The notes under the pieces were generated by a model, which made no database searches, was not told the DNA's origin, and saw only the letters and a program-made list of their open reading frames with translations. Below, piece after piece: positions 6,401-62,071 of a stretch of 64,000 nucleotides of DNA; the first letter of the stretch is position 1; every line of letters starts with the position of its first letter. The translations under genes were made by a program, and so were the position numbers. Source of the stretch: Ostreococcus lucimarinus (taxonomy: Eukaryota). The stretch is from the NCBI GenBank assembly GCA_000092065.1, contig CP000582.1, one strand, 5' to 3'.

Positions 6401-9400
6401 TCGAAGCAAGAGTAATGTTTGGTTTTTCGTAATGTTTTTCATACTCTCTCGCAAAATCTGCGCGAGCAAAGTCCCTGGTAGGCATGTTCTGTTCAAAACT
6501 TGATGGTCAGTGAGGAATTGGTTTTCAACATGGTTGAGCAAAAAAACAGTCTCAAGAACTCTATTGGTTACGTGCGCTCTGAATGGTGCCATGATTTGAA
6601 GACCCCAGCAATCAATTGGAGTGTACATGATGGATTTGCACGCAAGTTGTCGTCTGATTTGAAACTCATCATGTGCTACTGATACAATTGCGTGAGCATT
6701 TGTTCCCTGGAAAGCGAACGAGCTTATCGCCTGTGTCCGTGAAAGAGACTGCATGTTTTCCCTCGTAAATAATGCTAATTGAATTTTCGAGTTCAATGAT
6801 AACACGTCACTCACATGTGCATTTAAATGGCGCAAATGAACGATTGCGATAGCGGCTGATTCTGATAAAGAGTGGACGAGATGGGCAAATGAAGCACAGC
6901 CAGATGCCGGCTCAGCATGACCAGACCTTGATTTAACGGCCTGAGCCATCAATGGAGCATGGCTAACCTTCATCGGCGGTCTGAGGGCCTTGAACGTTGA
7001 TGAGACTTCAATCGGATCGCCAAGGATAGTTCCTGTACCGTGCAATTGTATGGCACCTATGTGATCAACTTCGACAGTTGCGGCGTGTGCAGTCGTTGAA
7101 ATCAATATCACTTGAGCGATTCCATTGGGTGCTGTGAGTGAACTCGTTCGTCCGTCTTGAGCGACAGTGCAAGCCATGAGTACACAGCGCTGTGTATGGG
7201 ATTTACAACGACTGAGTATCTGTAATTCGCAACACTCACCTCTGACATACCCATCTGCATGCATATCTAACACTTTACAACGACCTTCTGCAGATAACAT
7301 ACCCGCCAAGTAGCAAAGATACGAATTCCTGGGACTTATGATATGAACGCCTCCACAAAGCATATCATGCACGGCGTCGAATGTGTTCCGACATCCCAAG
7401 GTTTCCCGGCGAGCGATATACATCGCCACTAGCGCTGAAGAACATGCTGTATCCACGCTGACGGCTGGGCCTTGCATATCAAATATATATGCAAGACGAC
7501 CGGATGCTACGCTGATATGTTGACCGGATGCACTATATGCACAGGAATGCTCGCGTGCGCCTAAGGACACTTCGGGATAAGATGAAATACCAAGCGAGAT
7601 ACCGGTGTAAATGCTGAATAGATGGCTATGGAATAGACGTTGAGAATGTTCCAACAGCAGACGCTGCTGTGGGTCCATGCTGATCGCCTCTGCTTTTCCA
7701 ATTCGGAAACCTTGCCAGTCGAACATCACGATGCTTTCAACGAAGCAGCCCACTTTTAAACGTGGGTCGCTTTCTCCAAGTTCATCCGACAAAATGCGCC
7801 GTGCTGTTGGCATGAGGGCAATACTGTCGCAGTTTGCGACGCCCGCTGCCCCATGTGAAGTTCCAGATGACACAGCAAGCACACACTGAAGGTTGGGTTG
7901 CACAAATGGTGCGTTTTGTGGTGAACGACACAGTGCTTCTATCCCGTGCGCTTCGTCACAGCTGTGTTCAACATTTTGCATTAAATATGTGCACAATTTT
8001 GAAATGGTGGGGAAGTCAAATACCAAAGATGGTGCTACTTGCCTGTCGAAGTGTGTCGATATTTTACTGGCTAACTCAATCGCAGATAAAGAATCCAAGC
8101 CGGCGTCGTGGAGGGGGATATCAGGGTCAACATCGAAACCAATCAATGTGCAAACCATCTTATGAAGTAAACTCAGACAGTCCTGGGTGGTGTGACACCG
8201 CACGCCTGACGTAGTAAACTTTTTCTGACGCTCTAGCGTTGTTTGTTTATCAGCAATTTTCCGAGTGTGCACACTTTGCAAGCCGGTCGTATGTTTCTCA
8301 AGTAGCCAATCAGCCTTCGTCGAGTCACTGGTGAATGCGTTCTGGCATACGACGAGCACTGCGCCACATGATAGAGGTGCATTTTCTATTCTGCGCATGG
8401 TACTTTTCAGCGCAGCGAGGGCAGTCTTTGGGTCCATGAAGCCAACTCCTAGACGCGACATATTTCGTTCTATGTACTTATTACGGATCGCCATTCCGAC
8501 CTTCCCCCAGGCGCCCCATTGAACGCTGCACACAGGGCGACCAGCTGTGTGCTCAAATTGAGCGAGAGTATCCAAGGCAGAATTTGCGCATGAATAATTT
8601 GCCTGTCCTGGTGAACCTATTCGTGCCGTTATGGAAGAAAAGAAAATGGCGCTTAAAAGCGGTTTGCTTGAGTATAGATCAGCGTCAATGGTGAGAACTT
8701 TAGGAGCAAAGACTTCACGAATGCGTGCTGGCGTTTGTCGCAGAAGCAAGGCATCCGATGTACAACCTGCCGCATGCACGAGTCGAATTGAAGAGCACTT
8801 ATCAGTGAGCATGCAGTTATGGTTATGTGTTCGCCAGACATACATGAAACACTCAATGTAAAACGTCCGCTCATGCACGTAAATCTGAGATTTGCCTGAA
8901 CGATTCGGTAACTTGATGCATTGCATCTTCGTACGGATCAGCCTTCCAATGCCCCCGGACCCTCCTATTATCGTAAGTTGCTCTGTTTTTTTACCTTTCT
9001 CGTCACTTAAGCGCAGATATAAGGCTGAAGGTACGGTTTTATCGAAAAATTTGTGTTGATCTACGTATGAGTTTGACGGAACTATATTCTCTTGCACCGC
9101 TACCTTGCAAATTTGATGCAGCTGTTTGGTAGCGTTTGTACAATGAATGAGCTCGATGTGTCGACGCATTAGGCTTGTAAGTAAGGCGATATCGGCTGCA
9201 ACCTGCATCACTGAACATGCTTGTATTTTCCTTGGAACGGGTTCAAAGTCTGCATCTTGACATTCATAGAAAATTGTGATATTCTGGATTTTGCAGGGCG
9301 CTTTGCACGTTAAGCTACTAGCTTTGAACTGGGAATCGAAACCTAAAAGTTTGTCTAAACTCATACTGCAACCTGAGATTGTGTAACTTCCGACTGTTTT

Positions 9401-12400
9401 CACCTTGGAAACAGACTCAAAGATGGAGACACCACAACTAGCAAACCAACGCAATCCCTTGATCGCAATCTTCTGTGATACTGCGTCACCGATTACAGCA
9501 TTGACTGCTATTATGAAGGCTGCGGATGTGTTCGAAAGACTAGCTGCATTGTGATGAAGATCATAGGAACTGATAGAATGCGTGACGACATGCACATTTG
9601 AGCGGAGAAGAGGCGCGATTGTGGGCGAATCGAACTGCTTCATACTTGTATCGCACTTCTTGGATGCATGCTTTATCCTTGCACGACAATGCTCACCTTG
9701 TGAAGTTTCCACTTTGATCGCACCGGTTATGGCGCGGACAGAAACTTCTATACGTTGGTGGTACTGCAAAAGTAATGGCCTCACAATCGCAAGATCTTGA
9801 ACCATTGCAGTGTGTAAATCAAATGTACCGCACGCTTGAGCCATGTAATCTATGTACCCAGCCGCTGGAAATAACGGTTTTCCATGGATGCAATGGTCCG
9901 ACAGCGCTGGTGTCGGCTGATGGAGGCGCGAAACAATCGAATTGTGGCACACTTTTATCGACGCACCCGAGCTGTGCACTGGAGATGCAAACCAGCACTG
10001 ATTGCAGGAGAATAGCTTGGATGCGACACTATTGCAAGAACAGCCAGAATTTCGTGCTGTCGCCGATAATATCGCGTGAGCGTTTGTACCTTGAAATGCA
10101 AACGAGCTCGTTCCCGTCTTCGCATTTGCTTTATGCACATGCTGGCACGAAGCAGAAGCAGATCGCGGCACAGCAACGTTTGGCTCTTGAGAGGGATTTA
10201 TTGACATTGCGTGCCACGCATGTACGTTGAGTAAGCGCATGTGCATTATGCCAGTGTGTCTTTGCATTTCTACGGCACGTGATGCACTTATGAGCCCCGC
10301 CATACCGGCAGCACATTCAGCGTGCCCCATGTTCGTTTTGATTGCATGCAATCGTAAAGTTTCTGCCTGACCCAAAACAGACATCGCGCCTCCTACTTCT
10401 ATGGGGTCACCAAGTGGCGTCCCAGTTCCATGCATTTCAAGGGCCCGCACTTCTAATGGCCGAGTCGAAGCGTTTGCCAGGGCTGATTTGATGACTCTGG
10501 TCTGCGATGGTCCATTTGGCGCCGTCAACGAGCTCGTTCGACCGTCTTGATTTACTGCGGTCCCACACAGCCACACGCTCTCGCTATTGACATTCGCGGT
10601 TGGACTCAGTAATAATGTATCACAGCTTTCGGCTCGCACGTAACCATCCGCGGCCGCATCGAGCGTCTTGCAGCGGCCATCAGGCGCTAGCATACCAGCG
10701 CGTAGAAACATGGCCGTCGTAGTCTCGGTGAGGATGAGGTTCACGCCACCCGTTACAGTTGAGTCGCACTCACTCTGAAATACAGATGCCACACCGAGAT
10801 GGACTGCCACAAGGGACGAGGAGCAGGCAGTGTCGATACTCATCGCCGATCCTGTGAGATCGAATGTGAAGCATATCCGTCCAGAAGCGACACTCAACGC
10901 TTGTGATGTAGCATCTAGTGCACTTGCGGGGACACTTGTGGTTGTGCGCATGACCTCACCATACTCCATCCAAGCGATTCCAATAAACACAGAAGTGTGA
11001 GATATTGTGTATTTCGGTAGACATAGCGAGCTCACGCAGTGTAGTAGCAGACGCTGCTGTGGGTCCATGCTGATCGCCTCTGCTTTTCCAATTCGGAAAC
11101 CTTGCCAGTCGAACATCACGATGCTTTCAACGAAGCAGCCCACTTTTAAACGTGGGTCGCTTTCTCCAAGTTCATCCGACAAAATGCGCCGTGCTGTTGG
11201 CATGAGGGCAATACTGTCGCAGTTTGCGACGCCCGCTGCCCCATGTGAAGTTCCAGATGACACAGCAAGCACACACTGAAGGTTGGGTTGCACAAATGGT
11301 GCGTTTTGTGGTGAACGACACAGTGCTTCTATCCCGTGCGCTTCGTCACAGCTGTGTTCAACATTTTGCATTAAATATGTGCACAATTTTGAAATGGTGG
11401 GGAAGTCAAATACCAAAGATGGTGCTACTTGCCTGTCGAAGTGTGTCGATATTTTACTGGCTAACTCAATCGCAGATAAAGAATCCAAGCCGGCGTCGTG
11501 GAGGGGGATATCAGGGTCAACATCGAAACCAATCAATGTGCAAACCATCTTATGAAGTAAACTCAGACAGTCCTGGGTGGTGTGACACCGCACGCCTGAC
11601 GTAGTAAACTTTTTCTGACGCTCTAGCGTTGTTTGTTTATCAGCAATTTTCCGAGTGTGCACACTTTGCAAGCCGGTCGTATGTTTCTCAAGTAGCCAAT
11701 CAGCCTTCGTCGAGTCACTGGTGAATGCGTTCTGGCATACGACGAGCACTGCGCCACATGATAGAGGTGCATTTTCTATTCTGCGCATGGTACTTTTCAG
11801 CGCAGCGAGGGCAGTCTTTGGGTCCATGAAGCCAACTCCTAGACGCGACATATTTCGTTCTATGTACTTATTACGGATCGCCATTCCGACCTTCCCCCAG
11901 GCGCCCCATTGAACGCTGCACACAGGGCGACCAGCTGTGTGCTCAAATTGAGCGAGAGTATCCAAGGCAGAATTTGCGCATGAATAATTTGCCTGTCCTG
12001 GTGAACCTATTCGTGCCGTTATGGAAGAAAAGAAAATGGCGCTTAAAAGCGGTTTGCTTGAGTATAGATCAGCGTCAATGGTGAGAACTTTAGGAGCAAA
12101 GACTTCACGAATGCGTGCTGGCGTTTGTCGCAGAAGCAAGGCATCCGATGTACAACCTGCCGCATGAATAAAGCATAATGAATCCACAGCGTATCGATTT
12201 ATCTGTATATTAGTGTGTACGTAGGATTGTACAAACGACACAACGCTGTCACTGTACTGATGCTGTCTTAGCATACAGTTTGTTCGTCCAAAGCGACTCA
12301 TTAGTGTATGTGGTGAGCTGTACCTCATTAGGAAAGTACTAGTGAGTTGCCCTGTAGCTCCTGTTCCTCCCATGATGAAGTAAGACCGATTAAGATCGCA

Positions 12401-15400
12401 GGAGGCTATGAATTCACTTTTGTTACGATCGAGCTTGATCTTATGTATTTTGCGATTAGAGCACGCCAACTGTTGAGCAAGAGATTCTTTTAGGCACCGG
12501 TGCAATACATGAAATTTTCTCAGACTTTTGTATTGCGTAAAAGCCTGTAGTAGGATGCTAGAGTGTTGAAACGGCGCATCTTCACCCCGTACAACTAGGG
12601 AAACATTTTCTTTGATGCATTCAGTCTCAGCGCATCGGAACAGTGATGCAAGATACTTGATGGAATTCGTCTCACATAGCTCAACTCGACCTTCCATTTG
12701 CAGCACATAGGCGTGCAATACCATCACCGCATGAGCGACTATTTTTTCACGCATCAGTGATATAAATCGCGCGTGTGCTTGAGTGGTACAAGGTCTTAAG
12801 CTTGTGCTTGGTGAAAATCTTGACACGTACTTGACAATATTGATTCCATTGCTCAAATTATTTTTATGTGGATACCCATTTGCCTTTGTGCGTAGCATTT
12901 TGCATTTCACTTTGAATAACACCACGCAGCCAACCAGATGATTGCCAAGACTCTCACCATGGCTGTCCAATTCAATGTTACAGCGCGTACTTATGCGCCG
13001 CACTGACGTGATCTCAGGAGGAGATGTGCTACAAAACTTTATTATGGTCGGCAGCATCGTCACACACTTTGATACTTTCTGTCCATCTATGACTCCCACA
13101 CTGATCTGCAGAGTCGCGTCAATAATTGAGGGCACATGGCCTGATGTGAAGTTTGTTGATGCAGTCTCAACATGAGCGAGTGCAATGTTCAACCGACGCC
13201 CACTGTCGAAGATCGGGCTCAATGTCTGCGAAGAGAAAACATAAAGTGTGTTGTGTCTATCGCACTTCTTGGATGCATGCTTTATCCTTGCACGACAATG
13301 CTCACCTTGTGAAGTTTCCACTTTGATCGCACCGGTTATGGCGCGGACAGAAACTTCTATACGTTGGTGGTACTGCAAAAGTAATGGCCTCACAATCGCA
13401 AGATCTTGAACCATTGCAGTGTGTAAATCAAATGTACCGCACGCTTGAGCCATGTAATCTATGTACCCAGCCGCTGGAAATAACGGTTTTCCATGGATGC
13501 AATGGTCCGACAGCGCTGGTGTCGGCTGATGGAGGCGCGAAACAATCGAATTGTGGCACACTTTTATCGACGCACCCGAGCTGTGCACTGGAGATGCAAA
13601 CCAGCACTGATTGCAGGAGAATAGCTTGGATGCGACACTATTGCAAGAACAGCCAGAATTTCGTGCTGTCGCCGATAATATCGCGTGAGCGTTTGTACCT
13701 TGAAATGCAAACGAGCTCGTTCCCGTCTTCGCATTTGCTTTATGCACATGCTGGCACGAAGCAGAAGCAGATCGCGGCACAGCAACGTTTGGCTCTTGAG
13801 AGGGATTTATTGACATTGCGTGCCACGCATGTACGTTGAGTAAGCGCATGTGCATTATGCCAGTGTGTCTTTGCATTTCTACGGCACGTGATGCACTTAT
13901 GAGCCCCGCCATACCGGCAGCACATTCAGCGTGCCCCATGTTCGTTTTGATTGCATGCAATCGTAAAGTTTCTGCCTGACCCAAAACAGACATCGCGCCT
14001 CCTACTTCTATGGGGTCACCAAGTGGCGTCCCAGTTCCATGCATTTCAAGGGCCCGCACTTCTAATGGCCGAGTCGAAGCGTTTGCCAGGGCTGATTTGA
14101 TGACTCTGGTCTGCGATGGTCCATTTGGCGCCGTCAACGAGCTCGTTCGACCGTCTTGATTTACTGCGGTCCCACACAGCCACACGCTCTCGCTATTGAC
14201 ATTCGCGGTTGGACTCAGTAATAATGTATCACAGCTTTCGGCTCGCACGTAACCATCCGCGGCCGCATCGAGCGTCTTGCAGCGGCCATCAGGCGCTAGC
14301 ATACCAGCGCGTAGAAACATGGCCGTCGTAGTCTCGGTGAGGATGAGGTTCACGCCACCCGTTACAGTTGAGTCGCACTCACTCTGAAATACAGATGCCA
14401 CACCGAGATGGACTGCCACAAGGGACGAGGAGCAGGCAGTGTCGATACTCATCGCCGATCCTGTGAGATCGAATGTGAAGCATATCCGTCCAGAAGCGAC
14501 ACTCAACGCTTGTGATGTAGCATCTAGTGCACTTGCGGGGACACTTGTGGTTGTGCGCATGACCTCACCATACTCCATCCAAGCGATTCCAATAAACACA
14601 GAAGTGTGAGATATTGTGTATTTCGGTAGACATAGCGAGCTCACGCAGTGTAGTAGCAGACGCTGCTGTGGGTCCATGCTGATCGCCTCTGCTTTTCCAA
14701 TTCGGAAACCTTGCCAGTCGAACATCACGATGCTTTCAACGAAGCAGCCCACTTTTAAACGTGGGTCGCTTTCTCCAAGTTCATCCGACAAAATGCGCCG
14801 TGCTGTTGGCATGAGGGCAATACTGTCGCAGTTTGCGACGCCCGCTGCCCCATGTGAAGTTCCAGATGACACAGCAAGCACACACTGAAGGTTGGGTTGC
14901 ACAAATGGTGCGTTTTGTGGTGAACGACACAGTGCTTCTATCCCGTGCGCTTCGTCACAGCTGTGTTCAACATTTTGCATTAAATATGTGCACAATTTTG
15001 AAATGGTGGGGAAGTCAAATACCAAAGATGGTGCTACTTGCCTGTCGAAGTGTGTCGATATTTTACTGGCTAACTCAATCGCAGATAAAGAATCCAAGCC
15101 GGCGTCGTGGAGGGGGATATCAGGGTCAACATCGAAACCAATCAATGTGCAAACCATCTTATGAAGTAAACTCAGACAGTCCTGGGTGGTGTGACACCGC
15201 ACGCCTGACGTAGTAAACTTTTTCTGACGCTCTAGCGTTGTTTGTTTATCAGCAATTTTCCGAGTGTGCACACTTTGCAAGCCGGTCGTATGTTTCTCAA
15301 GTAGCCAATCAGCCTTCGTCGAGTCACTGGTGAATGCGTTCTGGCATACGACGAGCACTGCGCCACATGATAGAGGTGCATTTTCTATTCTGCGCATGGT

Positions 15401-26699: not shown

Positions 26700-27740
26700 G
26701 TTTTTGAGCGCGCGGTTTTTTCCGCTAGGCCTGCAGCACTGGGTACAGGAATTTCTGTACCCTTGTACCCTTGTACCTTAAGTTTTGTATGGGCAAACAG
26801 TCTAAAACCAGAGGTTTTGGGTACGTACCAGAAAATTCCTGGTACAGGTCATCTTGAGCCCTCAATATTGTAGCTCGCGCTTCGCGGCGCGAAACGGGGC
26901 GACGGCGGGTGAAATTCACGTCAAGACCGCAAAAAACGCGACGAGCGACGCGCGCGCGAACGCGAGGGCGCGACCGGGGTTTACGAGCGCGGGTTTGCGC
27001 GCGACGTGTTTGAAATTTGAAATGATGATTGAGCAAGCGGCAGACGTCCACGCTCGATGTCGACGTCGAATACCGACGACGCGGGCGCCGCGCCGAGGCG
27101 CGTGGATGACGGTGCGGAAGATAACGCGCTGCGCCCGTGGTGGACGTGCGGCGCGCAGATCCCGTGATAGATGCTGACAGCGATGGTGATGGAATTGGAG
27201 ACGTTGAAATCCTCTCGTCAGACGACGAGAATTTGGATGAGTACGTAAAAGGCCCAGACGAGCTCGTCATGCTACCACGTGTAAACGTTTCGGATCAAAT
27301 GGAAGTACTGCTTCTGGGCAGCCTTGGTGCAAACGTGCCGGTGCGTGATGATGATTCACGTCCCGCTCGGGACAAGACAAAGGAAACTTTTGCACACAAG
27401 GCAGCTTACAAGGTATTAGGACGTCAGGAGAAGGAGCGACGAAGTAAGAGTAGAAAGTTGAATTAATAGATAGACTGTGCGCGCGAAGTGCGTCGGTTCT
27501 CGCGCGGCTCTCGTCGATTCGTCACCTCCGTACCAGCTCGTACCAGCTCGTACCAGCTCGTACCAGACGATTCATACTGTTTACCCATACGACTGGCGCG
27601 TTCGGACATTCGGACAGGTACGTGGGTACGTACCGGGAAATCGCGGGTACGGGATTGCTGCACCACTATTTTCCGCGCAAGCGATCGTGCACCACCTTTG
27701 CTTGACACGATTACATATACGCGTAGCGCGTCACCACACG
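26700..27740. promoter_or_regulatory. CpG-rich, GTAC-repeat-rich island upstream of glk and tRNA-Gly.
   Basis: Tandem motifs (GTACCCTT)x3 at about 26758-26780 and (CGTACCAGCT)x4 at 27528-27568. Scattered GGTACAGG/GGGTACGTACC palindromes. Long CGCG-rich tracts 26880-27180. Confidence 0.4.
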
Positions 27741-27744
27741 CCAT

Positions 27745-27816
27745 GCACCATTAGTCCAACGGTTAGGATATGAGCCTTCCAAGCTCGAGACCCGGGTTCG
27801 ACTCCCGGATGGTGCA
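27745..27816 (+). tRNA. tRNA-Gly (anticodon UCC).
   Basis: GCACCATTAGTCCAACGGTTAGGATATGAGCCTTCCAAGCTCGAGACCCGGGTTCGACTCCCGGATGGTGCA folds as a cloverleaf. 7-bp acceptor stem GCACCAT/ATGGTGC; anticodon loop CTTCCAA; T-loop GGTTCGACTCC. Matches eukaryotic tRNA-Gly-TCC. Confidence 0.9.
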
Positions 27817-27890
27817 CTACTCACCATCGGTGGTTCACGACTCACCAACCTTGAGGGGCACTGACATGCTCAGGGAGGTTATATATTTTA

Positions 27891-30800
27891 GTTGTACTAG
27901 GGATTTCGAAAATAATGTATGAGGGTAAAATAGTGAATTTAATTAACCTCGACGTCTTGTCGCGCCGCTTCGCGCCGCGCGCGCGTCCGGGCGGCGCGGA
28001 GTCTACCGATCTTTCCGCGTATCGTGATATCCGACCGTTTAAGTTTGAATTCTGTGCGTGGGTGTTGACGGAACACGACCGTTGGAGCTCGATGGGCACG
28101 TTAACTTTTGGGCCAGATTCTGTCGCGTATGACGCCCCCTCGCGCGCGCCGAAGCGCGTCTCCGACCGTGTCGACGGCACGGAAAGGTTGTAAGAAGGCT
28201 TCTCAGCGATCTTCAGCCTCGCTGGGAGGAGCAGGGTCAACGACGGCTCCCGCTTGCGACGACGAAGATGGGCGCGCTCAAGTGGCCAAAGATGCTCGTG
28301 AGGTCGCCGTTTCTTTGCTCGCGAACAAACGTCGCCGGGAGGTTTCTGGCCAGGTAATGGCAAAAGTGACAGCTACGACGTTATTCCTCGACACCGTGAG
28401 CTTCAAAACAGAGTTGATAAAACAACACGCGTTCCTGAACCGCGTGAGGAAGCTGCTGAAAGACAAGGATGTGAAGCGAGACGCGCGCGCGTTGGTCACT
28501 GAAGAGTGCGCTTCGACATCAGATCAGTCCGAAAACACTGTGCACGTCACCGCTGATGTCGCACGCACACGCCGTGAAGAGCGGAGCCGAAATCCGCACC
28601 CCTTCTACGTCGAAGTAGTGCATGCATTAAGTCGCGGGGACATCTCGGCGACGCAGGCTGTCCATGAGTTGCAGCAGGTTGGCGTACGAGTCACCAAAGC
28701 GTTTTTGAAACGCGTGTGCACGGCTCAGTCGTTCCGGGATGACATTCCCCATTACTCCGAGTGCGAAGACGGCCGCGGCAGACCAAGTGCACTCAGCAAC
28801 GCATACTTGGACCAGCTCGCAAAAATTGTGAAGCATTACATTCGAGTTGGGATATCACTGAGTCAAGAGACGATTTTGTCGATGGCTAAAAACTTCTATC
28901 GCGACGAGCATCACGCAGATCCTTCTGATAAAACGTTCGGATCCGCGTGGTTCTATCGATTTCTCAATCGCCATGGCATTGACACTTCTCTGTACAATCC
29001 CCAGGATGCCTTGAGACTCAACGCCGCAACGGAGCACAACGTCAGCAATTACTACCAGCGCGTGGCCCAAACAGCAGTCAGTAATGGCTTCGCGACATGG
29101 AATGCCGACTTCGACGCGAACGATAGGAGTAGTGAGATGATCATTTGGAACGAAGAAAAGAAGAGCCGCGTGTTCACGTTCGACGAGGCGAAGGTGATGC
29201 TTGCCTATGAGAAAGGCGTGCGCGGAGTGAGAATGTTGGTCATCAAGGGCGAAGACAACCGCAGATCGGCTGTCACAGCGAACGATGCATTCGCAGCATC
29301 CGTCATGGGATGTAGAAACCTCGCTGGCGAGTCCTTGGCGCCTTACTTTGTGTGCACGACGCAGCCAAATGTCGAAGATGGTTTTGAAATCCCTGGAACT
29401 ATCACCGATACGACGACGGGTGCGTGCCAACAAGCCCAATGGATACGAGGAACGAAGAAGGGTTCATTCGACGGATTCGCATTCGCGACTTGGCTGAAGG
29501 ATCATCTCGCGCCGTGTGTTCCCGATTTGTCGCCGGAGAATCCGGCCATGGTGATTTGTGACGGATGTTATGCTCACACAGTCGACGAGGTGCTTGAGAT
29601 TTGTGCAGCAATGGGGATTCTCATGGTCATTCTGCCGCCTCATTGCACGCATATCCTGCAAGGCGAAGATTTGTACCACTTTGGTGTGTTTAAAGGTGCG
29701 TTTCGCGTCGAGCGTGCTGAAATCGAAGCGATGAAACAACTCGCCGCCGCGTGGTTCATCAAGCTCTTCGAGAACGGCGTCGCTACTTCTTTCGGACAGC
29801 GAGAGTTTTGGTACGCGGTTAAGGAGGCATGGAAAGGCGCTTGGACGAAACAGGCTGTCGAGAAAGGATTTAAAATGCAAGGATTGGTCCCTTTTAATCG
29901 AGCTCCACTCTGGAAAAACTTCCCGAACCATGAACGCAAGGAGCCGCAGCGCTCGACACCGGACAAGGAATCTCAAGTTGAAGCTGCCGAGCGGTGCGTT
30001 GAGCGCATGTCCATACCAGGAGCGCCCGGACTGCGAGTTATCGCACAATCTAGCGACTCGACATTCGATGTGACGTTTGATGGTAGTCCAGAGTCGTTCG
30101 CACGGGCGCCCCTGAACATGATGAAGCTGGACGAAGTGTACAAGAGCCTTGTTGAAAATCCGAGTAACCATAGTATGAACGACGAGCACTTGAACGTTAT
30201 GAAGCAGCTCATTCTCGAAAAGCAAGAAAACATCACAAAGAACATCGTGACGACGACCCGGAAACAGAGAAGTACACGCAGACACGATCGCTATGATGAA
30301 GCGACTGCTCCAGCCATGGCCCGCCTGCTCGCCGCTCGACAGAAGAGAGAGAAAACGAAGAAGAGAACGCACGACGCAGCTCAAGATGGATGCGACGCTC
30401 GGTTCAAGGACAACACGGATGATATTCAATTTCTTGCGGCGCTTCATAAACGCCTGGACGACAACGGATCACTCGAGAAATCTCTTACAAGAGCTGAACT
30501 CATGAAGGTGATGCGCGCGAAGCGAATTCCACTGCCACAAGGACCGACCGCTGATATCTTGAGAGATAAGTTGAAAGAGGTTGACGAGCGGCTCTATGAA
30601 GCAAACATAGAATGTACAAGAGTTGCGAACGCGCGGTGGCCCAAAAGAGCACGTCACGCGTCGTCAGTCGACGATGCAAACGTAAGGTGCGAGGTGAAGT
30701 ACCATCCAAGTGGCGTCCGAGTACAACTTATAACGGACTAAAAGAACACGTGAAAGACTCGAACACACAACCGGGCTGCAAATATCGATAGAAAACACTA

Positions 30801-31142
30801 TTCCCATCATTCGTGCGAGATTTAAGCGCACATCGCATCCGCGCGCCGTCGGTATCGACGCACAAAGTTTGTAATTCTAGACCCTGAGCAACTTGAAAAT
30901 TACCTCATCACCGTTTTCATTATTTTTGATAAAATTAACCTCAAAATTCAAAAATTTCGTCGGAACCTCGACGTCGCGATACTTAACGCGAGACAACGAA
31001 CAATGGCGCGTTGGAAAGCTCTAACGTTTTTACAAAATATATCCGCGAATCAGCGCGATCGGATTCCGCGTCGCGACGCTAGACGCGCGCAAACGCGAAA
31101 ATTAACGTTTTTCATATTTTTTTTCGAAATCACTTTGTACTG
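27891..31142 (+). mobile_element. pogo/Tigger-like (Tc1/mariner superfamily) DNA transposon, about 3.25 kb, with imperfect TIRs and flanking TA.
   Basis: Left end GTTGTACTAGGGATTTCGAAAATAATGTATGA (27891-). Reverse complement of the right end is CAGTACAAAGTGATTTCGAAAAAAAATATGAAA (-31142). They share the GTAC...GATTTCGAAAA..AT.TATGA core. TA dinucleotide immediately outside both ends (27889-27890 and 31143-31144). Contains the transposase ORF below. Confidence 0.6.
28108..30741 (+). CDS. pogo/Tigger-type DDE transposase (CENP-B/HTH N-terminal region plus DDE_1 endonuclease domain), 877 aa, apparently intact.
   Basis: HTH_Tnp_Tc5-like segment ILSMAKNFYRDEHHADPSDKTFGSAWFYRFLNRHGID. DDE_1 signature MVICDGCYAHTVDEV...ILPPHCTHILQGEDLYHFGVFK. 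Long uninterrupted ORF. Confidence 0.75.
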   Translation: MGQILSRMTPPRARRSASPTVSTARKGCKKASQRSSASLGGAGSTTAPACDDEDGRAQVAKDAREVAVSLLANKRRREVSGQVMAKVTATTLFLDTVSFKTELIKQHAFLNRVRKLLKDKDVKRDARALVTEECASTSDQSENTVHVTADVARTRREERSRNPHPFYVEVVHALSRGDISATQAVHELQQVGVRVTKAFLKRVCTAQSFRDDIPHYSECEDGRGRPSALSNAYLDQLAKIVKHYIRVGISLSQETILSMAKNFYRDEHHADPSDKTFGSAWFYRFLNRHGIDTSLYNPQDALRLNAATEHNVSNYYQRVAQTAVSNGFATWNADFDANDRSSEMIIWNEEKKSRVFTFDEAKVMLAYEKGVRGVRMLVIKGEDNRRSAVTANDAFAASVMGCRNLAGESLAPYFVCTTQPNVEDGFEIPGTITDTTTGACQQAQWIRGTKKGSFDGFAFATWLKDHLAPCVPDLSPENPAMVICDGCYAHTVDEVLEICAAMGILMVILPPHCTHILQGEDLYHFGVFKGAFRVERAEIEAMKQLAAAWFIKLFENGVATSFGQREFWYAVKEAWKGAWTKQAVEKGFKMQGLVPFNRAPLWKNFPNHERKEPQRSTPDKESQVEAAERCVERMSIPGAPGLRVIAQSSDSTFDVTFDGSPESFARAPLNMMKLDEVYKSLVENPSNHSMNDEHLNVMKQLILEKQENITKNIVTTTRKQRSTRRHDRYDEATAPAMARLLAARQKREKTKKRTHDAAQDGCDARFKDNTDDIQFLAALHKRLDDNGSLEKSLTRAELMKVMRAKRIPLPQGPTADILRDKLKEVDERLYEANIECTRVANARWPKRARHASSVDDANVRCEVKYHPSGVRVQLITD

Positions 31143-31227
31143 TACTCTTTTCGTACAGCTTAGATAACACCGTGCGTCTAAGGCTACACGTTCGAAGAAT
31201 CAGCCACACACAATTCTAAACTTCGTT

Positions 31228-33168
31228 TTAATCTCGACTTGGTCCTGCTTCGCACACCCTGTACTCCTCCACGAGATTCTCAACGGCTTCCTGACTATCA
31301 GCAAATTCTCCCAAGTCCTGATACCATTGTAACTCTCATCAACTAATCGAGGAAACGCGACTCACCGAAAATAAATCAAACTGTTCATACTGATCGAGGA
31401 ATGCCCGACGCCTTATTAGCTTATCGTACTGCTCCAAACTTCGTGAGAACCAGTGACGTATGCTGGTGTGAAAGGTGTCAGCAGGACGACGCAAAGAGCT
31501 GCATTATAGCTCACCTTGTGTGATTTGCGAGCATGAGTCCGTTCAGACTTGCCGTTTTCGCGATATACGGAGAACTCCTCGCTAAAGCAACTTGATAGTT
31601 GACAGGTGCCCAAGTGATAAAATTTGCCAGTTTCCGTTCTCGTATACGCTGTAAGCTTTTGTGTATCTGTTTTGATGTGAGTGTACAAGTGCGGAACACC
31701 TTGGAATATGAATACCTGCATGGGTTCAATATTTCCTTGAACGATGTTCAAAATGGATATGAATTTGCCCTAAAGTTGGCTTTAAGCAAAAGAAAGGCGG
31801 GAAGCACGGAAAGGGATGGACCTCTTTGACACCTGTGCCCGCATACGAGGAACACATCACATTTTTGCTTTGTAGGAGTCTTCGCATGACATCAAGGGTA
31901 GAAGTTTTGCGTGTACTGTACAATAAATACATGAGAACATATGAATATTGAAGTTGTGCCGCATGGACCTGCTTTCCGTTGCGGAAACACCAGCGAGAGG
32001 TGTAAGCCCAGCCATGAGAAAATTGCACCGTGGAATGGGAATCAGGGACTGTTTCAAACCAGTTTAGAAAAGGACATTAAAGTCCCACGAACTTACCGCT
32101 ATGAGACCAACAAGATCGTTGTTCATGTAACCAGGATATCTGAGAGTTGTGGTACTCGCTGCCATGACCTTCGATACGAGAGAGTTTGTATGGGAGAAAT
32201 CAGGCGAGGCAACATGGAGGTGGTCCATTGCGATTCGATTCAAAGCCGCGTTATCTAAAACAACTACACAATCCGCGTGGTTTGTTAGACGTTTCAGAGT
32301 CAAGAGAGAGTTATACGGCTGTACAACGACATCTTTACTACGACGTGAGCAGCAACAAAATAATAAAGCCTTCCGTGCTTACCACTTGACTCGCTTTGAT
32401 TTGGGAAAACACTGTACGTTTGCAGAAGTTTTTTCCCATACCGATCGCTCAAAGCCTAGTTATCATGTGAGAATGCATTCGCTACGCGATTCACGACAAC
32501 CCACCTCCAATAGATATGATCCCATACCAGACCCAGTCCCGCCAGCTATCGAGTGGCAAATAACAAAACCCGCAAGACTATCGCTACCGTCGACCTCTCG
32601 ATCGATCATTTCCATTAACTCCTCCTAATACACGTGAGTTTGCTTGCAGGATGGCAACATTTTCCAACTTACATGAACAGCCTCAGCTTGCGTGTACCCG
32701 TTTGCCCAATTATTTCCCGCACCCCCCCCGTGTGCAGATGTAAAAAAGTTTTCAGTATTGAATAGAGAACGCTGTGTTGAAGTTTGAATAGAGTTGATGA
32801 CACGCGGTTCAAGATCAAGTAACTATTCAAGTTTTAATGACGTCGGTATATCCCTCACATAGCATCCTTACCAGCGCTCTTGGTACATAATGTTCATCAT
32901 CTGCTTGGTAGAAGAAAACATCCTTCCGATCGGAGAACATATTTACAGAGGCCCCATCGATGCGACACGTGCCATCCATTGATATCCCATGCTCAGTGCA
33001 TAACTTGCAAGAAATTAGACACCACTTACACCAAAACTGAGCAAACGAACCTGGTTCCAAAACTCTGTGCCAACTTGGTTGCCACACTGACCTATCTGTA
33101 TCGTCACGATCTCTCTAAATGTGGTTTAAAAAGCTTGTGCGAATACTTGAGGCAGACTCACCGCGGCA
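31228..33168 (-). CDS. TUBG: Gamma-tubulin, multi-exon (at least 8 exons; span given).
   Basis: Exons translate to MPR|[21 protein letters not shown]|[11 protein letters not shown]...[19 protein letters not shown], ...[122 protein letters not shown], ...[37 protein letters not shown]...*. Start ATG at 33168-33166; stop TAA at 31228-31230. Confidence 0.85.
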
Positions 33169-41832: not shown

Positions 41833-41905
41833 TGGCGACACCGCGGATCGAACGCGGGACCTTTAGATCTTCAGTCTAACGCTCTCCCAACTGAGCTATG
41901 TCACC
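41833..41905 (-). tRNA. tRNA-Phe (anticodon GAA).
   Basis: Minus-strand sequence GGTGACATAGCTCAGTTGGGAGAGCGTTAGACTGAAGATCTAAAGGTCCCGCGTTCGATCCGCGGTGTCGCCA. Acceptor GGTGACA/TGTCGCC; anticodon loop CTGAAGA; T-loop TTCGATC. Close to canonical eukaryotic tRNA-Phe. Confidence 0.9.
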
Positions 41906-45462: not shown

Positions 45463-47129
45463 GACCTACCTTCGATCACGACCAACAATAGATGCGTTCT
45501 CCCAGTCGGCGATTTCGGCCGACGATAAAGGCTCGTCTACCTATTTTTCGTGTGATTGCATTTCAATTAGTTGTATGCGACACGTACTGAAACCAGTTGC
45601 TCCTGAACGCAACTGTCGAAAAAGGTTGCGTAGGAACACTCCCCGATTCTGAGTATAATTGATAGCACGCGCGATGTGCGAAAAGTCCAGCTTTCGTAAA
45701 AGTTGATTATTCCCTGGAGACTAAAGCAACGAAACACGAAGCTTGCAAAGAGGTTCCAAAAGTACATTTTGGAATGCGCGTAGCGCTACGACAGCTGTTT
45801 GCTATGACCGCTGTTTCCGTCGAAGGATTACGTGTAGGTCGATTTCAAGACTTATGATATGTCGTACGCGTGACGCGTTCGCGAACACGCGTCGTCACTT
45901 GTGGGGGAGTGTTGCAGAGGGTACGACGCACTACCGAACTGGGCCTGACAACGCTTCTTTAAGTCTCCCAGGGTGCTGGAAAAATTTATATATCGCACCT
46001 TTAGAGAGTACCTACACACATGACGAGTCATGAACCGTGGATATATACGTATTTTACACCGTTTAGTGCCATCTACAATAGAGTATTCCTACCTTGGTGA
46101 AAAGTAGTAGTAGTATGTTGGTATGATACCTTTGCTGAAGGTCCTTCAGTGAAGGACCTTCAGACAAAGTTAGTTGAATACGGAGAAGACCGGCTCGCGG
46201 CGGACAGAATACACGACGTGCAACGAGAGCTTCGATACTGTCTTGTGATAGCAACCCAACTGAAATCAAGCGGAAGTATCGTCTGATTACGCAGCGATGC
46301 CCCGAACCGAAACTGGCAACGTTCGTCTTCTTGCACGTGTCCGACGGGGCGAGTCAGGGTCACCAGCGTACTTTTGATATCAGGGTGCTCCACAGCACAT
46401 CATAAGCATCAAATTCAAAATTAGTTGCTACCCAATTGAATCCTCTGTGGTCATCTACGATGCCGACTGAAGACCGCGGTGGACTTTCTGGCCCAACAGT
46501 ACTCAAGTTTCTTCGCACGACCAGTCTAGTAGCTTTTAAGTTGTGGGCACCAGGTATAGAAAGTATTCCAGTCGAAACACTATCTTTCTCAGACTCAACA
46601 TAGGACCATTCAAGTTAGTGCTGTGCAAGGACCTACTGCGCTCAGTACAAATGGCGCTCGTGAAAACACGCTCAGTGCAAAAAAATATATTATGTGACAA
46701 CTCAAGTTGTACTACTCCAGTACCCCTCTTAAGCAGAGTGTTTCACGGTGTATCAACTAGCATAATATGGAGGCTTCAATTAAATGTTGAGGTATGACAT
46801 TGGTACAGTCAATTCCTCCTTCATTTGGATTCAGATTACTCTTTTAGCTCCTCGGTTTATGTGTTCGCTTTTTACTCCCTGGAACATTCAGAACCTTGCA
46901 GTTCTACAATCTCCTTTTCAAGTTGACGTGCGGGTACGTCAAAACAGCAGTCTGGTGCGTTATTAACACTCTTCTTTCGTCATGGTTTGAACGATTCTTA
47001 CATACATAGGGATATACGAACCGCGAAATGCATATCGGAGTTGAAGGTGCCTCGTTGCTTTTCCCATACTATATTCAATATTCATGACAAGATTTAGGAA
47101 TGCTGGGACTCTCGCCATAGCAAGGCCGC

Positions 47130-55994: not shown

Positions 55995-56097
55995 CGATCC
56001 AAGGAAGTTAAAAGAACGATGCGACGGGTCTGAAAATTAATCTCTCGTTGAATAGTTTCATTATAAACTCAAGATTGTAAATTTAATGTGATGCGTC

Positions 56098-57616
56098 TCA
56101 GTCCGTTTCGTAACCGAACACAGATGAAAAGACATCAATAACTCGAGAGCCTTCATCAATAGTCGCCATTGGATCCTTACGGAGCCTGTGACGCAGGCAG
56201 AGCGACACTACCGAATAAACGTCTTCGTCGGTCACTACCTTGGAACCTCGGAAGGCTGCAGCTGCACGTGATGCGCGAGTCGTCACGAGATCACCACGGA
56301 GGCCATCGACGTCAAGCTCAGCGCAGACTTGGGAAATTTTCAGTCGGATTTCCATGGGAACCTCAACCTCCGGTAACAAGGCGCGCGCCCGAGTCACCTG
56401 GTCTATGATTTCGTCCTGCTTTGCCTTGTATCCCGCGCGGAACGACTTCGGATCCGTGTCAAATGCAGTCCGCTCTTCGACAACCTTGACCCGCTCTTCT
56501 GGCAGTTTCACAGTCTTGATTTGTGCATGCATGCCGAAGCGATCTAAAAGCTGGGGTCGCAGTTCGCCTTCTTCTGGGTTACCGGAACCAATGAGGATGA
56601 AACGAGCCGGGTGACATATACTGATTCCCTCGCGCTCCACTGTATTCCAGCCCGACGCTGCCGAATCAAGCAAAACATCAACAAGGTGGTCGTCTAGTAA
56701 GTTGACTTCATCAACATACAGTATTCCGCGATTCGCCTTGGCGAGGAGACCAGGTTCGAAGGCTTTCGTCCCCTCAGTTAACGCTTTCTCGATATCGATC
56801 GTCCCGCATACGCGATCCTCAGTTGCACCCAAGGGTAAGTCAACCATATTGATAGGAACGAAGGAAGTCTCGAGCGGTTGCTTGGCCCGATATGCCGATA
56901 AAACGTCGGGAGACATCAAGTTCGGATCCGTAGGGCTACTCATAAACGGATCATCTTTCACGATTTCGATGTATGGAAGTAAATCAGTCAACGAACGGAC
57001 TGTCGTCGACTTCCCAGTCCCACGATCGCCCATCACCATGATGCCGCCGATATTCGGATCGATGATGTTCATCAGCGCTGCGAACTTCATCTCTTCTTGG
57101 CCAATGATAGCGCAGAAGGGATATACAGGTCTAGCGGTACTATCCTCCACCTCGGAATCGTTGGAAACTACGTCAAGAGTGAGTAAGTCAATATTCTATG
57201 CCGACACTACAGGGTCTCTTACCGGCTTTAGGGCGAAGTGTCTGCTGCACGCGGCAGCCACGCGTGCCTTGAATGTTCCTGAAAACAAATTGAGAAAAAT
57301 TTCGAAGATCAGTTCGAAACGGGGCGTACTTATATCCCCGGCTCCATCTACAGAGCGCTGTACCGTAGAAGAAAACCGTCAGTCGCCCGAGTTCTGTCGA
57401 TAAGGTTGCGAGCGATGTGTTCGCGTGTCCGCTTGTGCGAAAAGAACGCAATGGGAAAGCCTCACGCGTGACGATCTAACGAACAAAAAAATGAGGATGC
57501 TTGAGTGAAACAAATATCGCGTCAAACTCGCACGTGACGAGAAAACTTCGCGTGCAGGCACGTGTCTCACCGTTTACGTGTTGATGACTGTATGAAACAG
57601 CGGCGGACATCGACAT
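56098..57616 (-). CDS. chlI: Magnesium chelatase ATPase subunit I (ChlI), nuclear-encoded with transit-peptide exons.
   Basis: Main exon 56098-57167: ...ARPVYPFCAIIGQEEMKFAALMNIIDPNIGGIMVMGDRGTGKSTTVRSL... (AAA+ Walker A, full-length ChlI). Proposed upstream exons: 57616-57578 (MSMSAAVSYSHQH, GTAAAC donor) and 57475-57364 (IVTREAFPLRSFRTSGHANTSLATLSTELGRLTVFFY); the latter joins in phase to VSNDSEVEDSTARPVYPF. Confidence 0.75.
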
Positions 57617-60655: not shown

Positions 60656-62071
60656 TTGGCGCAGTGTTTGCTTGCTGCCTTCGTGATGCACGAAAAGACT
60701 AACGTTATCCTCCCCGAGAACAGCCTGAGCGCGAAGTTGCACGAACCTAAGCTGTCGCGTTCGCGCACGACGGCGCGTGTGACGCCACGAAATGTGGTCA
60801 CAGCGTCTGGTGCCCCTTTAACTGATCGGAAATTGCGTGTCGCTGTCATCGGTGGTGGTCCTGCCGGTGCTTGCGCCGCTGAAACTCTGGCGAAGGGTGG
60901 ATGCGAGACCTTCCTGATCGAGCGCAAGATGGACAACTGCAAGCCCTGTGGTGGCGCCATCCCGCTGTGCATGGTTGGTGAATTCGACTTGCCGGAAGAA
61001 ATCATCGACCGTAAGGTCACTAAAATGAAGATGATCTCGCCTTCGAACCGTGCCGTGGATGTCGGACAAACTCTGAACGACAAGGAGTACATCGGTATGT
61101 GCCGTCGAGAAGTCATGGATGACTTCCTGCGCAAACGCGCGAAGAGCCTAGGCGCGAACCTTGTCAACGGTCTTTTCATGAAAATCGAAGATCCCGGCCA
61201 AGGAAACGGCCCTATCATGGTCCAGTACAACGATTACGAAGAAGAAAGCAAGACTGGCGTTCCCAAAACGCTTGAGGTTGACGTCGTCATCGGCGCGGAT
61301 GGTGCCAACTCTCGCGTTGCCAAGTGCATCGACGCAGGTGAATATGACTACGCCATCGCCTTCCAGGAACGCATTAAGATTCCGGATGCAAAGATGGAGT
61401 ACTATAAAGACCTTGCTGAAATGTACGTAGGCGACGACGTGTCGCCAGATTTTTACGGTTGGGTTTTCCCGAAGTACGATCACGTTGCGGTTGGGACTGG
61501 TACGGTTGTGAACAAGACTGCCATTAAGCAATATCAGACTGCCATGCGCAACAGAGCCGAGGAAAAGTGCGAGGGTGGTAAAATTATCCGTGTGGAGGCG
61601 CACCCGATCCCGGAACATCCGAGACCGAACAGAGTGAAAGGTCGTGTCGCGTTGGTTGGAGATGCAGCAGGCTACGTCACGAAGTGCAGTGGCGAAGGTA
61701 TTTACTTCGCGGCCAAGTCAGGTCGTATGGCAGCCGAGGCCGTTGTCGAACAATCGATGAATGGAACGAAGGAAATTGGCGAGACCGATCTTCGTGTTTA
61801 CCTTGACAAGTGGGATCGCAAGTACTGGGCGACGTACAAGGTTCTTGACATTTTGCAGAAAGTCTTCTACCGCTCTAATCCGGCGCGTGAAGCCTTCGTT
61901 GAAATGTGCGCGGATGAGTACGTGCAGAAGATGACTTTCGATTCCTACCTGTACAAAACTGTTGTGCCGGGCAATCCGTTGGACGATGCGAAGCTCCTCG
62001 CCAATACTGTTGCCTCACTGATGCGCTCGAACGCTCTTCGCATCGCGTCAAAAAGTGGCATCGCCGCCTAA
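60656..62071 (+). CDS. chlP: Geranylgeranyl diphosphate reductase (ChlP) with an N-terminal transit peptide.
   Basis: 471-aa ORF. RVAVIGGGPAGACAAETLAKGGCETFLIERKMDNCKPCGGAIPLCMV (FAD-binding GxGxxG), ...VALVGDAAGYVTKCSGEGIYFAAKSG, with a C-terminus typical of ChlP. N-terminal 60 aa is S/T/R-rich. Confidence 0.85.
   Translation: MAQCLLAAFVMHEKTNVILPENSLSAKLHEPKLSRSRTTARVTPRNVVTASGAPLTDRKLRVAVIGGGPAGACAAETLAKGGCETFLIERKMDNCKPCGGAIPLCMVGEFDLPEEIIDRKVTKMKMISPSNRAVDVGQTLNDKEYIGMCRREVMDDFLRKRAKSLGANLVNGLFMKIEDPGQGNGPIMVQYNDYEEESKTGVPKTLEVDVVIGADGANSRVAKCIDAGEYDYAIAFQERIKIPDAKMEYYKDLAEMYVGDDVSPDFYGWVFPKYDHVAVGTGTVVNKTAIKQYQTAMRNRAEEKCEGGKIIRVEAHPIPEHPRPNRVKGRVALVGDAAGYVTKCSGEGIYFAAKSGRMAAEAVVEQSMNGTKEIGETDLRVYLDKWDRKYWATYKVLDILQKVFYRSNPAREAFVEMCADEYVQKMTFDSYLYKTVVPGNPLDDAKLLANTVASLMRSNALRIASKSGIAA

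Follow-up and report, generated by a model that had tools for sequence, protein, structure and literature searches.

The pogo superfamily of the IS630-Tc1-mariner group is defined by a DDE_1 domain together with an HTH_Tnp_Tc5 domain, a DD29-56D triad, a TA duplication and inverted ends of no more than 40 bp (Gao et al. 2020, PMC7386202). The target duplication is TA (or TAA/TAAA), and ends of 40 bp or less are those of type 1 (PMC7386202). Tigger and pogoR carry a CENP-B_N domain, the Tigger triad ranges over DD29-36D, and many TIGD genes have a degraded triad (PMC7386202, table). In green algae, a broad survey found no Tc1/mariner elements in Chlorophyta (PMC7325037), and pogo elements of the Fot-like kind have been reported in one green alga (PMC7386202). 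The Mamiellales, including Ostreococcus, have genomes that are among the smallest and most compact of the free-living eukaryotes, with transposons concentrated in two "outlier" chromosomes. In O. tauri, two 'DDE superfamily endonuclease' genes (ostta19g00165 and ostta02g00275), one on each outlier chromosome, have been proposed to mediate rearrangements (Yau et al. 2016, PMC5082852), and an EDTA survey flagged Tc1/Mariner-class elements in the outlier regions (BOC1, the big outlier chromosome) of Mamiellales, CCE9901 included (10.1101/2025.04.21.649811). Here we describe a pogo-type element on chromosome 2 of Ostreococcus lucimarinus CCE9901, in the low-GC "outlier" part, within a 64-kb stretch of DNA that was analysed as a whole and is called the window below.

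The element combines a DDE_1 domain, an HTH_Tnp_Tc5 domain, a DD35D triad, TA flanks, 26-bp ends and an RNase-H-like fold, and belongs to the pogo superfamily. We hold with high confidence that it is an autonomous cut-and-paste transposon and not a domesticated gene, because its anatomy, fold, triad and TA flanks, its near-identical copies, its defective derivatives, its transcripts and the purifying selection on its protein all point the same way. Near-identical copies at other places in wild populations show, on sequence comparison, that the family moved recently, and it is plausible that this particular copy is still able to move. A sequence-only reading of the window had already proposed an intact pogo-type transposon with inverted ends and TA flanks, lodged between a tRNA-Gly gene and the 3' end of the gamma-tubulin gene, and both the anatomy and the other copies agree with it.

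The limits of the element (Table 1) were read from comparison with other copies, in which the similarity to the window always begins with CTAGGG directly after a TA and stops with a G directly before a TA. The two ends form an ungapped inverted pair of 17 nt at 88 % identity (27899-27915 with 31118-31134). Their gapped end-to-end alignment scores 26, as against 13.7 +/- 2.3 for random window pairs, 0.13 % of which reach 26. The 11-mer GATTTCGAAAA occurs exactly twice in the 64 kb, once per end and inverted, where 0.11 occurrences are expected. The 26-bp ends are imperfect, matching at about 19 of 26 positions with two 1-nt shifts, and a looser inverted similarity reaches about 100 nt inward. 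The 5' end, CTAGGG(A/T)TT(T/C)CG, is conserved across three subfamilies, the 3' ends of which read CAAAGTGATTTCG, CACGTGATTCCGG and CTTGTGATTTCG; CACGTGATTCCGG and CTTGTGATTTCGAAAAAAG are the subfamily versions recorded with the 3' terminal repeat of the element. The same termini were seen again in more than 20 other copies. Both junctions could be read at 11 sites, each of which has TA on either side, and TA precedes 15 of the 16 distinct left flanks. The insertion flanks share a weak, short AT-rich palindromic preference, approximately T-A-S-[TA]-S-T-A, as is usual for Tc1/mariner/pogo elements. The inverted ends seen in the sequence-only reading are therefore real and match better than random window pairs, but the limits proposed there, 27891 and 31142, lie 5-6 bp too far out. 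Likewise, TA flanks are present, but the pair is 27895-96/31138-39 and not the TAs at 27889-90/31143-44 that those limits implied, and the 'GTAC' noted as shared is indeed common to both ends but is composed of one flank base, the TA and the terminal C or G.

All of the other copies described here lie on metagenome contigs (numbered L001 and onwards), to which the counts below refer. The closest copy (L001 and L021-L026) is 99.6 % identical over 3.26 kb, has wholly different flanks and is bordered by TA on both sides. Its neighbours are an RPL24e-side region on one side and a U3-associated-protein gene on the other. It was found there in at least six assemblies, two of which have long flanks on both sides, and differs from the window by two non-synonymous changes in 2,610 nt, that is, by two amino acids. 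Two further subfamilies are each represented by an identical transposase in many places: in subfamily 2, a protein of 827 amino acids (aa) with 81 % aa identity to that of the window occurs in about 10 different flanks, and in subfamily 3, an 857-aa protein with 62 % identity occurs in seven. Together they add about 17 sites, nearly all of them TA-flanked. A frameshifted subfamily (L057-L061), which has open reading frames (ORFs) of 192, 373, 318 and 98 aa and over aa 474-736 is 91 % identical to the protein of the window, stands beside four or more different sets of genes, including Asn synthase/HSP70, Clp protease/TRM13, MCM and adaptin, implying that defective copies also spread or persist. 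The expectation that the element would recur elsewhere was thus borne out, the additional copies sharing its termini and TA flanks, while the 64-kb window itself contains no further copies or fragments. The MMETSP culture transcriptomes contain a complete 869-aa member of the 90 % cluster as well as other family members, one of them from Ostreococcus sp. RCC789. Carriage by prasinoviruses or other viruses was considered and set aside, as no relatives were found among the viral contigs of IMG/VR.

The contig of the second copy carries other sequences related to the window. On L021, 13488-14613 is 98 % identical to window 60714-61839, a geranylgeranyl-reductase-like gene, and a Mg-chelatase ChlI gene at 618-2173 is 77-80 % identical to window 56092-57135, in inverted orientation and with extra genes between. 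These similarities give the contig the look of a haplotype of this chromosome region that has diverged and been rearranged, and it may be that of the opposite mating type; an opposite mating-type haplotype of this chromosome has been described (PMC8557840).

The transposase is encoded by the ORF at 28108-30741 on the plus strand. The sequence-only reading had given it 877 aa, a length that needs a bacterial TTG start; from the first ATG, the protein has 870 aa. Pfam places an HTH_Tnp_Tc5 domain (PF03221; 39.7 bits, cut-off 22.2) upstream of an intact DDE_1 domain (PF03184; 34.9 bits, cut-off 22), which was also detected in 32 of 36 relatives. Both domains had been anticipated in that reading and exceed their cut-offs. 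On the other hand, the CENP-B-like N-terminal part proposed with them was not recovered: no CENP-B_N, psq (HTH_psq) or Brk domain was found in aa 1-235 at E<=10 with Pfam in two subfamilies. Among the 36 relatives, HTH_psq appears in one (E 0.002) and DDE_3 in one. In the predicted model, a helical region at aa 136-201, upstream of HTH_Tnp_Tc5, may be the first helix-turn-helix. D352, D478 and D514 are all invariant in the close family. Across the 36 relatives, which are 17-80 % identical, D352, E353, G479, H483, P504, Q511 and D514 are invariant and D478 is kept in at least 90 %. The putative catalytic triad is accordingly DD35D, with the Asp of "QGED" as its third residue; the catalytic residue that had been sought in 'LQGED' is D514 and not the glutamate. 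The 270-aa C-terminal extension has no Pfam match at E<=10, and its aa 760-835 are confidently helical. A SAP-like helix-loop-helix considered for the C-terminal part (LTRAELMKVMRAKRIPLPQGPTADILRDKLKEV) is unsupported by Pfam at E<=10, and we make no claim for it.

Twenty-nine close relatives of the protein were found, each of full length, with identities of 100, 83, 82 and so on down to 62 %. An exhaustive HMMER search of 1.84 billion representatives returned 1,671 relatives at E<=1e-3 and 40 at E<=1e-30, and the full-length distant ones are 17-27 % identical and unnamed. Word-indexed searches with one protein and two profiles found nothing beyond the close family, and a sequence search of the PDB gave no significant match, CENP-B included. 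A first AlphaFold2 (AF2) model, built from 18 close sequences, reached a predicted local distance difference test score (pLDDT) of 50, had no meaningful fold matches and was replaced. The final model, from 36 diverse sequences, has a pLDDT of 75, with 85-97 in the core. Its best fold matches in the PDB are the Mos1 mariner transpososomes (Foldseek E 6e-5, probability 1.0, about 455 columns aligned with full-length Mos1), the catalytic domain of Sleeping Beauty and the transposase domain of SETMAR, ahead of retroviral integrases.

Between subfamilies, the ratio of non-synonymous to synonymous divergence (dN/dS) is 0.11-0.20 in the second helix-turn-helix and DDE region, 0.17-0.33 in the C-terminal part and 0.27-0.38 in the N-terminal part, so that all three parts of the protein are under purifying selection. 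Separately, subfamilies 1 and 2 (window 28129-28830 and 29929-30738 against L003) show a dS of 1.7 over the first 230 codons and of 0.15 over the last 270, a strongly mosaic divergence that suggests recombination between the subfamilies.

By inference from the family, the transposase would bind the 26-bp imperfect ends through its N-terminal helix-turn-helix region and would pair both ends. The RNase-H-like DD35D centre formed by D352, D478 and D514 would then excise the element and join it into a TA dinucleotide, which would be duplicated. The insertion is presumably harmless at this site, given that it lies in a spacer of about 170 bp between the tRNA gene and the 3' end of gamma-tubulin.

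Several observations weigh against reading the element as an autonomous, recently mobile transposon. The other copies come from metagenome assemblies, where contigs that run through repeats can be chimeric, as illustrated by the hybrid 3' end of L023. At one site of subfamily 3, CG takes the place of TA on the left, and the first helix-turn-helix is unrecognised by Pfam. In addition, no empty-site or footprint-only allele was found among the contigs of this locus or in pattern scans: a gapped junction pattern allowing 0-14 nt between the flanks detected no empty site in metagenome contigs, and a left-flank pattern matched two contigs only, both already recovered. For this copy, the TA duplication and the excision are accordingly presumed rather than observed.

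To compare alleles of the insertion site, about 30 contigs of the locus were recovered through the flanking ORFs, and six kinds can be told apart. In the majority, the element is arranged as in the window, and at least eight independent assemblies have it in the same orientation at 99.3-100 % identity. In L014 (13892-14521) and L020 (9937-11720), the left flank is followed by TA and then by CAAGTGATTTCGAAAAAAAA, the 3' end of the element. Both contigs thus carry the element inverted at the same TA as in the window (27895-96), in an allele known from its left junction only. Their element is 98.6-99 % identical to that of L036, where the same variant lies forward with a normal right junction. 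A flip by recombination between the inverted ends was rejected, because exchange within the 11-nt core would keep the 5' outer bases at the left flank, whereas the outermost bases of the 3' end abut it in the inverted allele. In the simplest reading, the inverted allele reflects excision and re-insertion, or an independent insertion.

A third arrangement is present in L013 (NCBI assembly GCA_014466335.1; 8725-10101), where TTAGTTG-TA-CGAG-TA is followed by a 1.37-kb subfamily-3 derivative in reverse. This derivative ends in ATCACTTTG-TA-CTGTAC, its last 9 nt (ATCACTTTG) being equal to the 3' tip of the window element. It retains the subfamily-3 3' end and has a new 5' module. Of the transposase, only the C-terminal part survives, in a 227-aa ORF that opens with a new N-terminus of 14 residues and continues with the final 213 residues of the subfamily-3 protein at 99 % identity. 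The additional TACGAG is similar to the footprint that an excision would leave. The final 204 nt of this structure recur in L031 and its final 105 nt in L037; L037 ends there, and in L031 the shared 204 nt are joined to other left neighbours, glycosyltransferase genes. L032 (4429-4440) and L039, from a 360-kb JGI contig, lack the 244 bp corresponding to window 31136-31379. The final 2 nt of the element are lost with it, as are the right TA, the spacer and the last exon of gamma-tubulin, and the deletion looks like the scar of an aborted or one-ended excision. Finally, L046 (1-1041) follows the window to 28127, the first 233 nt of the element, and then enters a peroxidase gene, reflecting either a structural variant or rearrangement that breaks inside the element or an assembly chimera.

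The alternative that survives best accepts a mobile family but takes this copy to be fixed and non-moving in the CCE9901-type haplotype, whether silenced or hampered by poor, imperfect ends. The uniform orientation and high identity in the independent assemblies, the missing empty allele and the incomplete match of the two ends all speak for such a copy. However, the same imperfect end pair bounds the second-locus copy, so the ends were competent recently. One and the same variant was found both forward and inverted at this TA, and the deletion next to the element's end is suggestive of transposase activity at the site itself. We therefore consider a fixed copy unlikely, though it has to be taken seriously.

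A more far-reaching reading goes beyond mobility, and we advance it only tentatively, as quite unlikely on balance. It holds that the TA between tRNA-Gly and gamma-tubulin is a recurrent landing and flipping site and that the family actively remodels the non-recombining, mating-type-like low-GC region of chromosome 2. It is consistent with both orientations at this TA, with the L013 derivative behind its 6-nt insert, with the 244-bp deletion and with the structural-variant breakpoints, which coincide with the element ends. It is also consistent with the presence of the 99.6 % identical copy in an apparent opposite haplotype that is rearranged and about 20 % diverged.

Structurally, the spacer region is hypervariable. 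In L019 (9692-11934), L031 (1-3996) and one more contig, the similarity to the window is lost at 27668, before the tRNA, or just left of gamma-tubulin, and the replacing genes comprise a 328-aa ORF without a Pfam match, a mannosyltransferase, an epimerase and a Glyco_H_20C_C protein. A module of about 105 nt with a TATA-like TTTATATAA (GGAAAAATTTATATA...CCTACACACA...) is found at window 45973-46080, at L031 2383-2487 and 4088-4188 and at L013 9982-10082. It recurs at 82-85 % identity, upstream of the mannosyltransferase gene and of the truncated transposase ORF, and may be a mobile promoter-like module or a miniature inverted-repeat transposable element (MITE).

Dedicated targeting of tRNA genes or of this site, in the manner of Ty3 or the Dictyostelium TRE elements and with a functional 77-nt position, draws on the three different elements or orientations found at the same TA beside a tRNA gene. 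We regard it as very improbable. None of the 24 other family loci has a tRNA gene in its sequenced flanks, so that the proximity to tRNA-Gly here is incidental, and the flanks share nothing beyond the short AT-rich palindromic preference. In a compact genome of about 60 % GC there are few neutral TA sites, and re-use of one can come from target preference and selection.

It is highly improbable that the multiple sites and orientations arose as metagenome assembly artefacts across a repeat. Many contigs are 3.2-4 kb long and end just outside the element, and the hybrid end of L023 and the peroxidase junction of L046 would fit such an origin. The junctions, however, were read directly, within a few tens of bases of unique flank, and the two ends have no more than 11 nt in common, much less than an assembly k-mer. 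The inverted left junction, TA-CAAGTG with the outermost 3' bases, occurs in two independent assemblies from different sources, and the second locus is supported by the assemblies with long flanks described above.

That the ORF is a domesticated single-copy host gene derived from pogo, like CENP-B, TIGD or fission-yeast Abp1, is scarcely credible: the intact ORF, the purifying selection that extends to its 270-aa C-terminal extension, and the presence of the element in most haplotypes recovered, with no empty allele seen, would suit it, but near-identical copies in unrelated flanks, conserved TA-flanked ends, frameshifted and deleted copies elsewhere, a fully intact triad and the inverted element or different subfamily in other strains at this locus show that the ORF is no single-copy syntenic gene and tell against the domesticated gene that the sequence-only reading had named as its own alternative. 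The domesticated-gene, tRNA-targeting and assembly-artefact explanations are each contradicted by direct observations, and the autonomous transposon is retained.

Table 1. Coordinates of the element, its parts and its nearest neighbours in the window.
Feature	Position	Strand	Basis
Element proper, 3,241 bp	27897..31137	+	homology limits against the 99.6 % copy (L001/L021) and subfamily copies
Left TA, presumed target-site duplication	27895..27896	.	all copies diverge upstream of TA followed by CTAGGG
Right TA, presumed target-site duplication	31138..31139	.	TA after the 3' end at 11 sites with the right junction read
5' terminal inverted repeat, CTAGGGATTTCGAAAATAATGTATGA	27897..27922	+	inverted pair, conserved start
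3' terminal inverted repeat, reverse complement CAAAGTGATTTCGAAAAAAAATATGA	31112..31137	-	inverted pair, other copies
Transposase gene, 870 aa, intron-free, stop codon included	28129..30741	+	ORF, Pfam, homologues
HTH_Tnp_Tc5 DNA-binding domain, aa 236-286	28834..28986	+	Pfam, AF2 helices with pLDDT 88-95
Putative catalytic core: D352 (29182-84), D478 (29560-62), D514 (29668-70)	29182..29670	+	alignments, Pfam DDE_1, fold
C-terminal extension, aa 601-870	29929..30738	+	conserved, purifying selection
tRNA-Gly (anticodon UCC)	27745..27817	+	ARAGORN; upstream neighbour outside the element
Gamma-tubulin stop codon	31228..31230	-	translation, tubulin exon ORFs, Pfam Tubulin on called genes of the same locus

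The neighbours named in the sequence-only reading, tRNA-Gly and gamma-tubulin, were confirmed (Table 1). With the corrected TAs, 77 nt separate the end of the tRNA from the left TA and 88 nt separate the right TA from the stop codon of gamma-tubulin, which is convergent with the element and interrupted by many short introns. The GC content of the window is 43-52 %, with 52 % in the element and 44-47 % in its surroundings. The low GC and the intron-rich gamma-tubulin gene are typical of the BOC1 compartment, which is rich in introns and transposons (10.1101/2025.04.21.649811; PMC5082852). Three flanking ORFs match annotated O. lucimarinus CCE9901 proteins exactly (ABO94672.1, ABO94429.1 and others), and the transposase sequence was found only in metagenome and transcriptome sources and is absent from the NCBI and UniRef protein sets. 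As its neighbours from the same record are present in these sets, the element seems to be unannotated in the CCE9901 reference genome.

Elsewhere in the window, about 3.5 tandem copies of the 10-mer GTACCAGCTC lie at 27530-27565, 180 nt upstream of tRNA-Gly, in an array that differs in L019. A tRNA-Phe(GAA) gene lies at 41833-41905 on the minus strand, between a lysyl-hydroxylase-fusion gene and a beta-galactosidase gene. The minus strand of 1-20257 holds an uninterrupted ORF of at least 6,752 aa, running past the window start. Its product is a type I polyketide synthase of the modular kind, in which KS-DH-KR-ACP modules (domain names) are repeated, and stretches of about 3.6 kb recur within the ORF almost unchanged, such as those at 11046-14716, 9649-11107 and 7018-8776.

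An intact, transcribed and recently mobile pogo element with defined ends supplies a missing annotation of the reference. It can serve as a marker of strain and haplotype dynamics in metagenomes, and it is a candidate native transposon tool for a transformable model picoalga. Repeated use of a single TA, together with the deletion beside the element, hints at a contribution of this family to the hypervariable structure of the big outlier chromosome. If the haplotype of the second copy is indeed the MT+ allele, sharing a young transposon would imply recent co-residence of both mating types in one cell. Such co-residence would be direct evidence of ongoing sex in the wild and would give a handle on the hypervariability of the outlier chromosome.

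Enrichment of Tc1/Mariner-class elements in the outlier regions of Mamiellales was already known, and what is new here is this family, its ends and its population behaviour, of which a literature search found no description. The EDTA survey works at the class level, with an O. tauri element of about 1 kb as its example, and its text does not contain this 3.2-kb family, its ends or its polymorphism. Ostreococcus is absent from the searched supplementary files of PMC7386202. The two O. tauri endonuclease genes can be likened to the element by description only, as their name is a Pfam description shared by DDE_1 and other DDE families, and none of the relatives found here has an O. tauri accession.

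Among better characterized systems, the domesticated pogo genes (CENP-B, TIGD, POGZ and Abp1/Cbh) are single-copy and syntenic, without inverted ends or target duplication, and the element differs from them in its multiple loci, its inverted ends with TA, its intact triad and its polymorphism in orientation and presence. The tRNA-targeting elements Ty3 and TRE insert at a fixed distance, which the 24 other loci do not show. Mos1, Sleeping Beauty and SETMAR provide the best structural matches to the whole DNA-binding and catalytic architecture (4u7b, 5hoo, 3hot, 5cr4, 3f2k and 3k9k), in line with the RNase-H-like fold and bipartite helix-turn-helix N-terminus of the solved transposases of this group, and cut-and-paste transposition with TA duplication is presumably shared with them. 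However, these proteins are 9-13 % identical, have DD34D or DD34E triads, belong to other Pfam families and measure about 340 aa, whereas the element adds a 130-aa N-terminal and a 270-aa C-terminal extension. Its DD35D and DDE_1 also set it apart from Tc1/mariner sensu stricto, which has DD34E/DD34D and DDE_3/Transposase_1. With Tigger, pogoR and CENP-B, the element shares the superfamily, HTH_Tnp_Tc5 with DDE_1, a DDD triad that, as DD35D, falls within the Tigger range, and the TA target. It differs from Tigger and pogoR in having no CENP-B_N/psq first helix-turn-helix detectable at E<=10, and CENP-B (1hlv) appeared as a non-significant fold match (E 4.5) in the poor first model only. Tigger and pogo ends usually start with CAG, and those of the element begin with CTAGGG and CAAAGTG. 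The Tigger- or CENP-B-like character assigned in the sequence-only reading thus finds no support here. With the Fot-like/Passer elements (PMC7386202), it shares DDE_1, a single detectable HTH_Tnp_Tc5, DD35D, TA flanks and ends of 40 bp or less, and its 3.2 kb and 870 aa lie within the published ranges of 1.2-5.2 kb and 300-977 aa (PMC7386202). Unlike them, its nearest distant relatives are unnamed, at 17-27 % identity, and it has a long conserved C-terminal extension without a known domain. By the published descriptions, DD35D and a single HTH_Tnp_Tc5 match Fot-like/Passer better than Tigger/pogoR.

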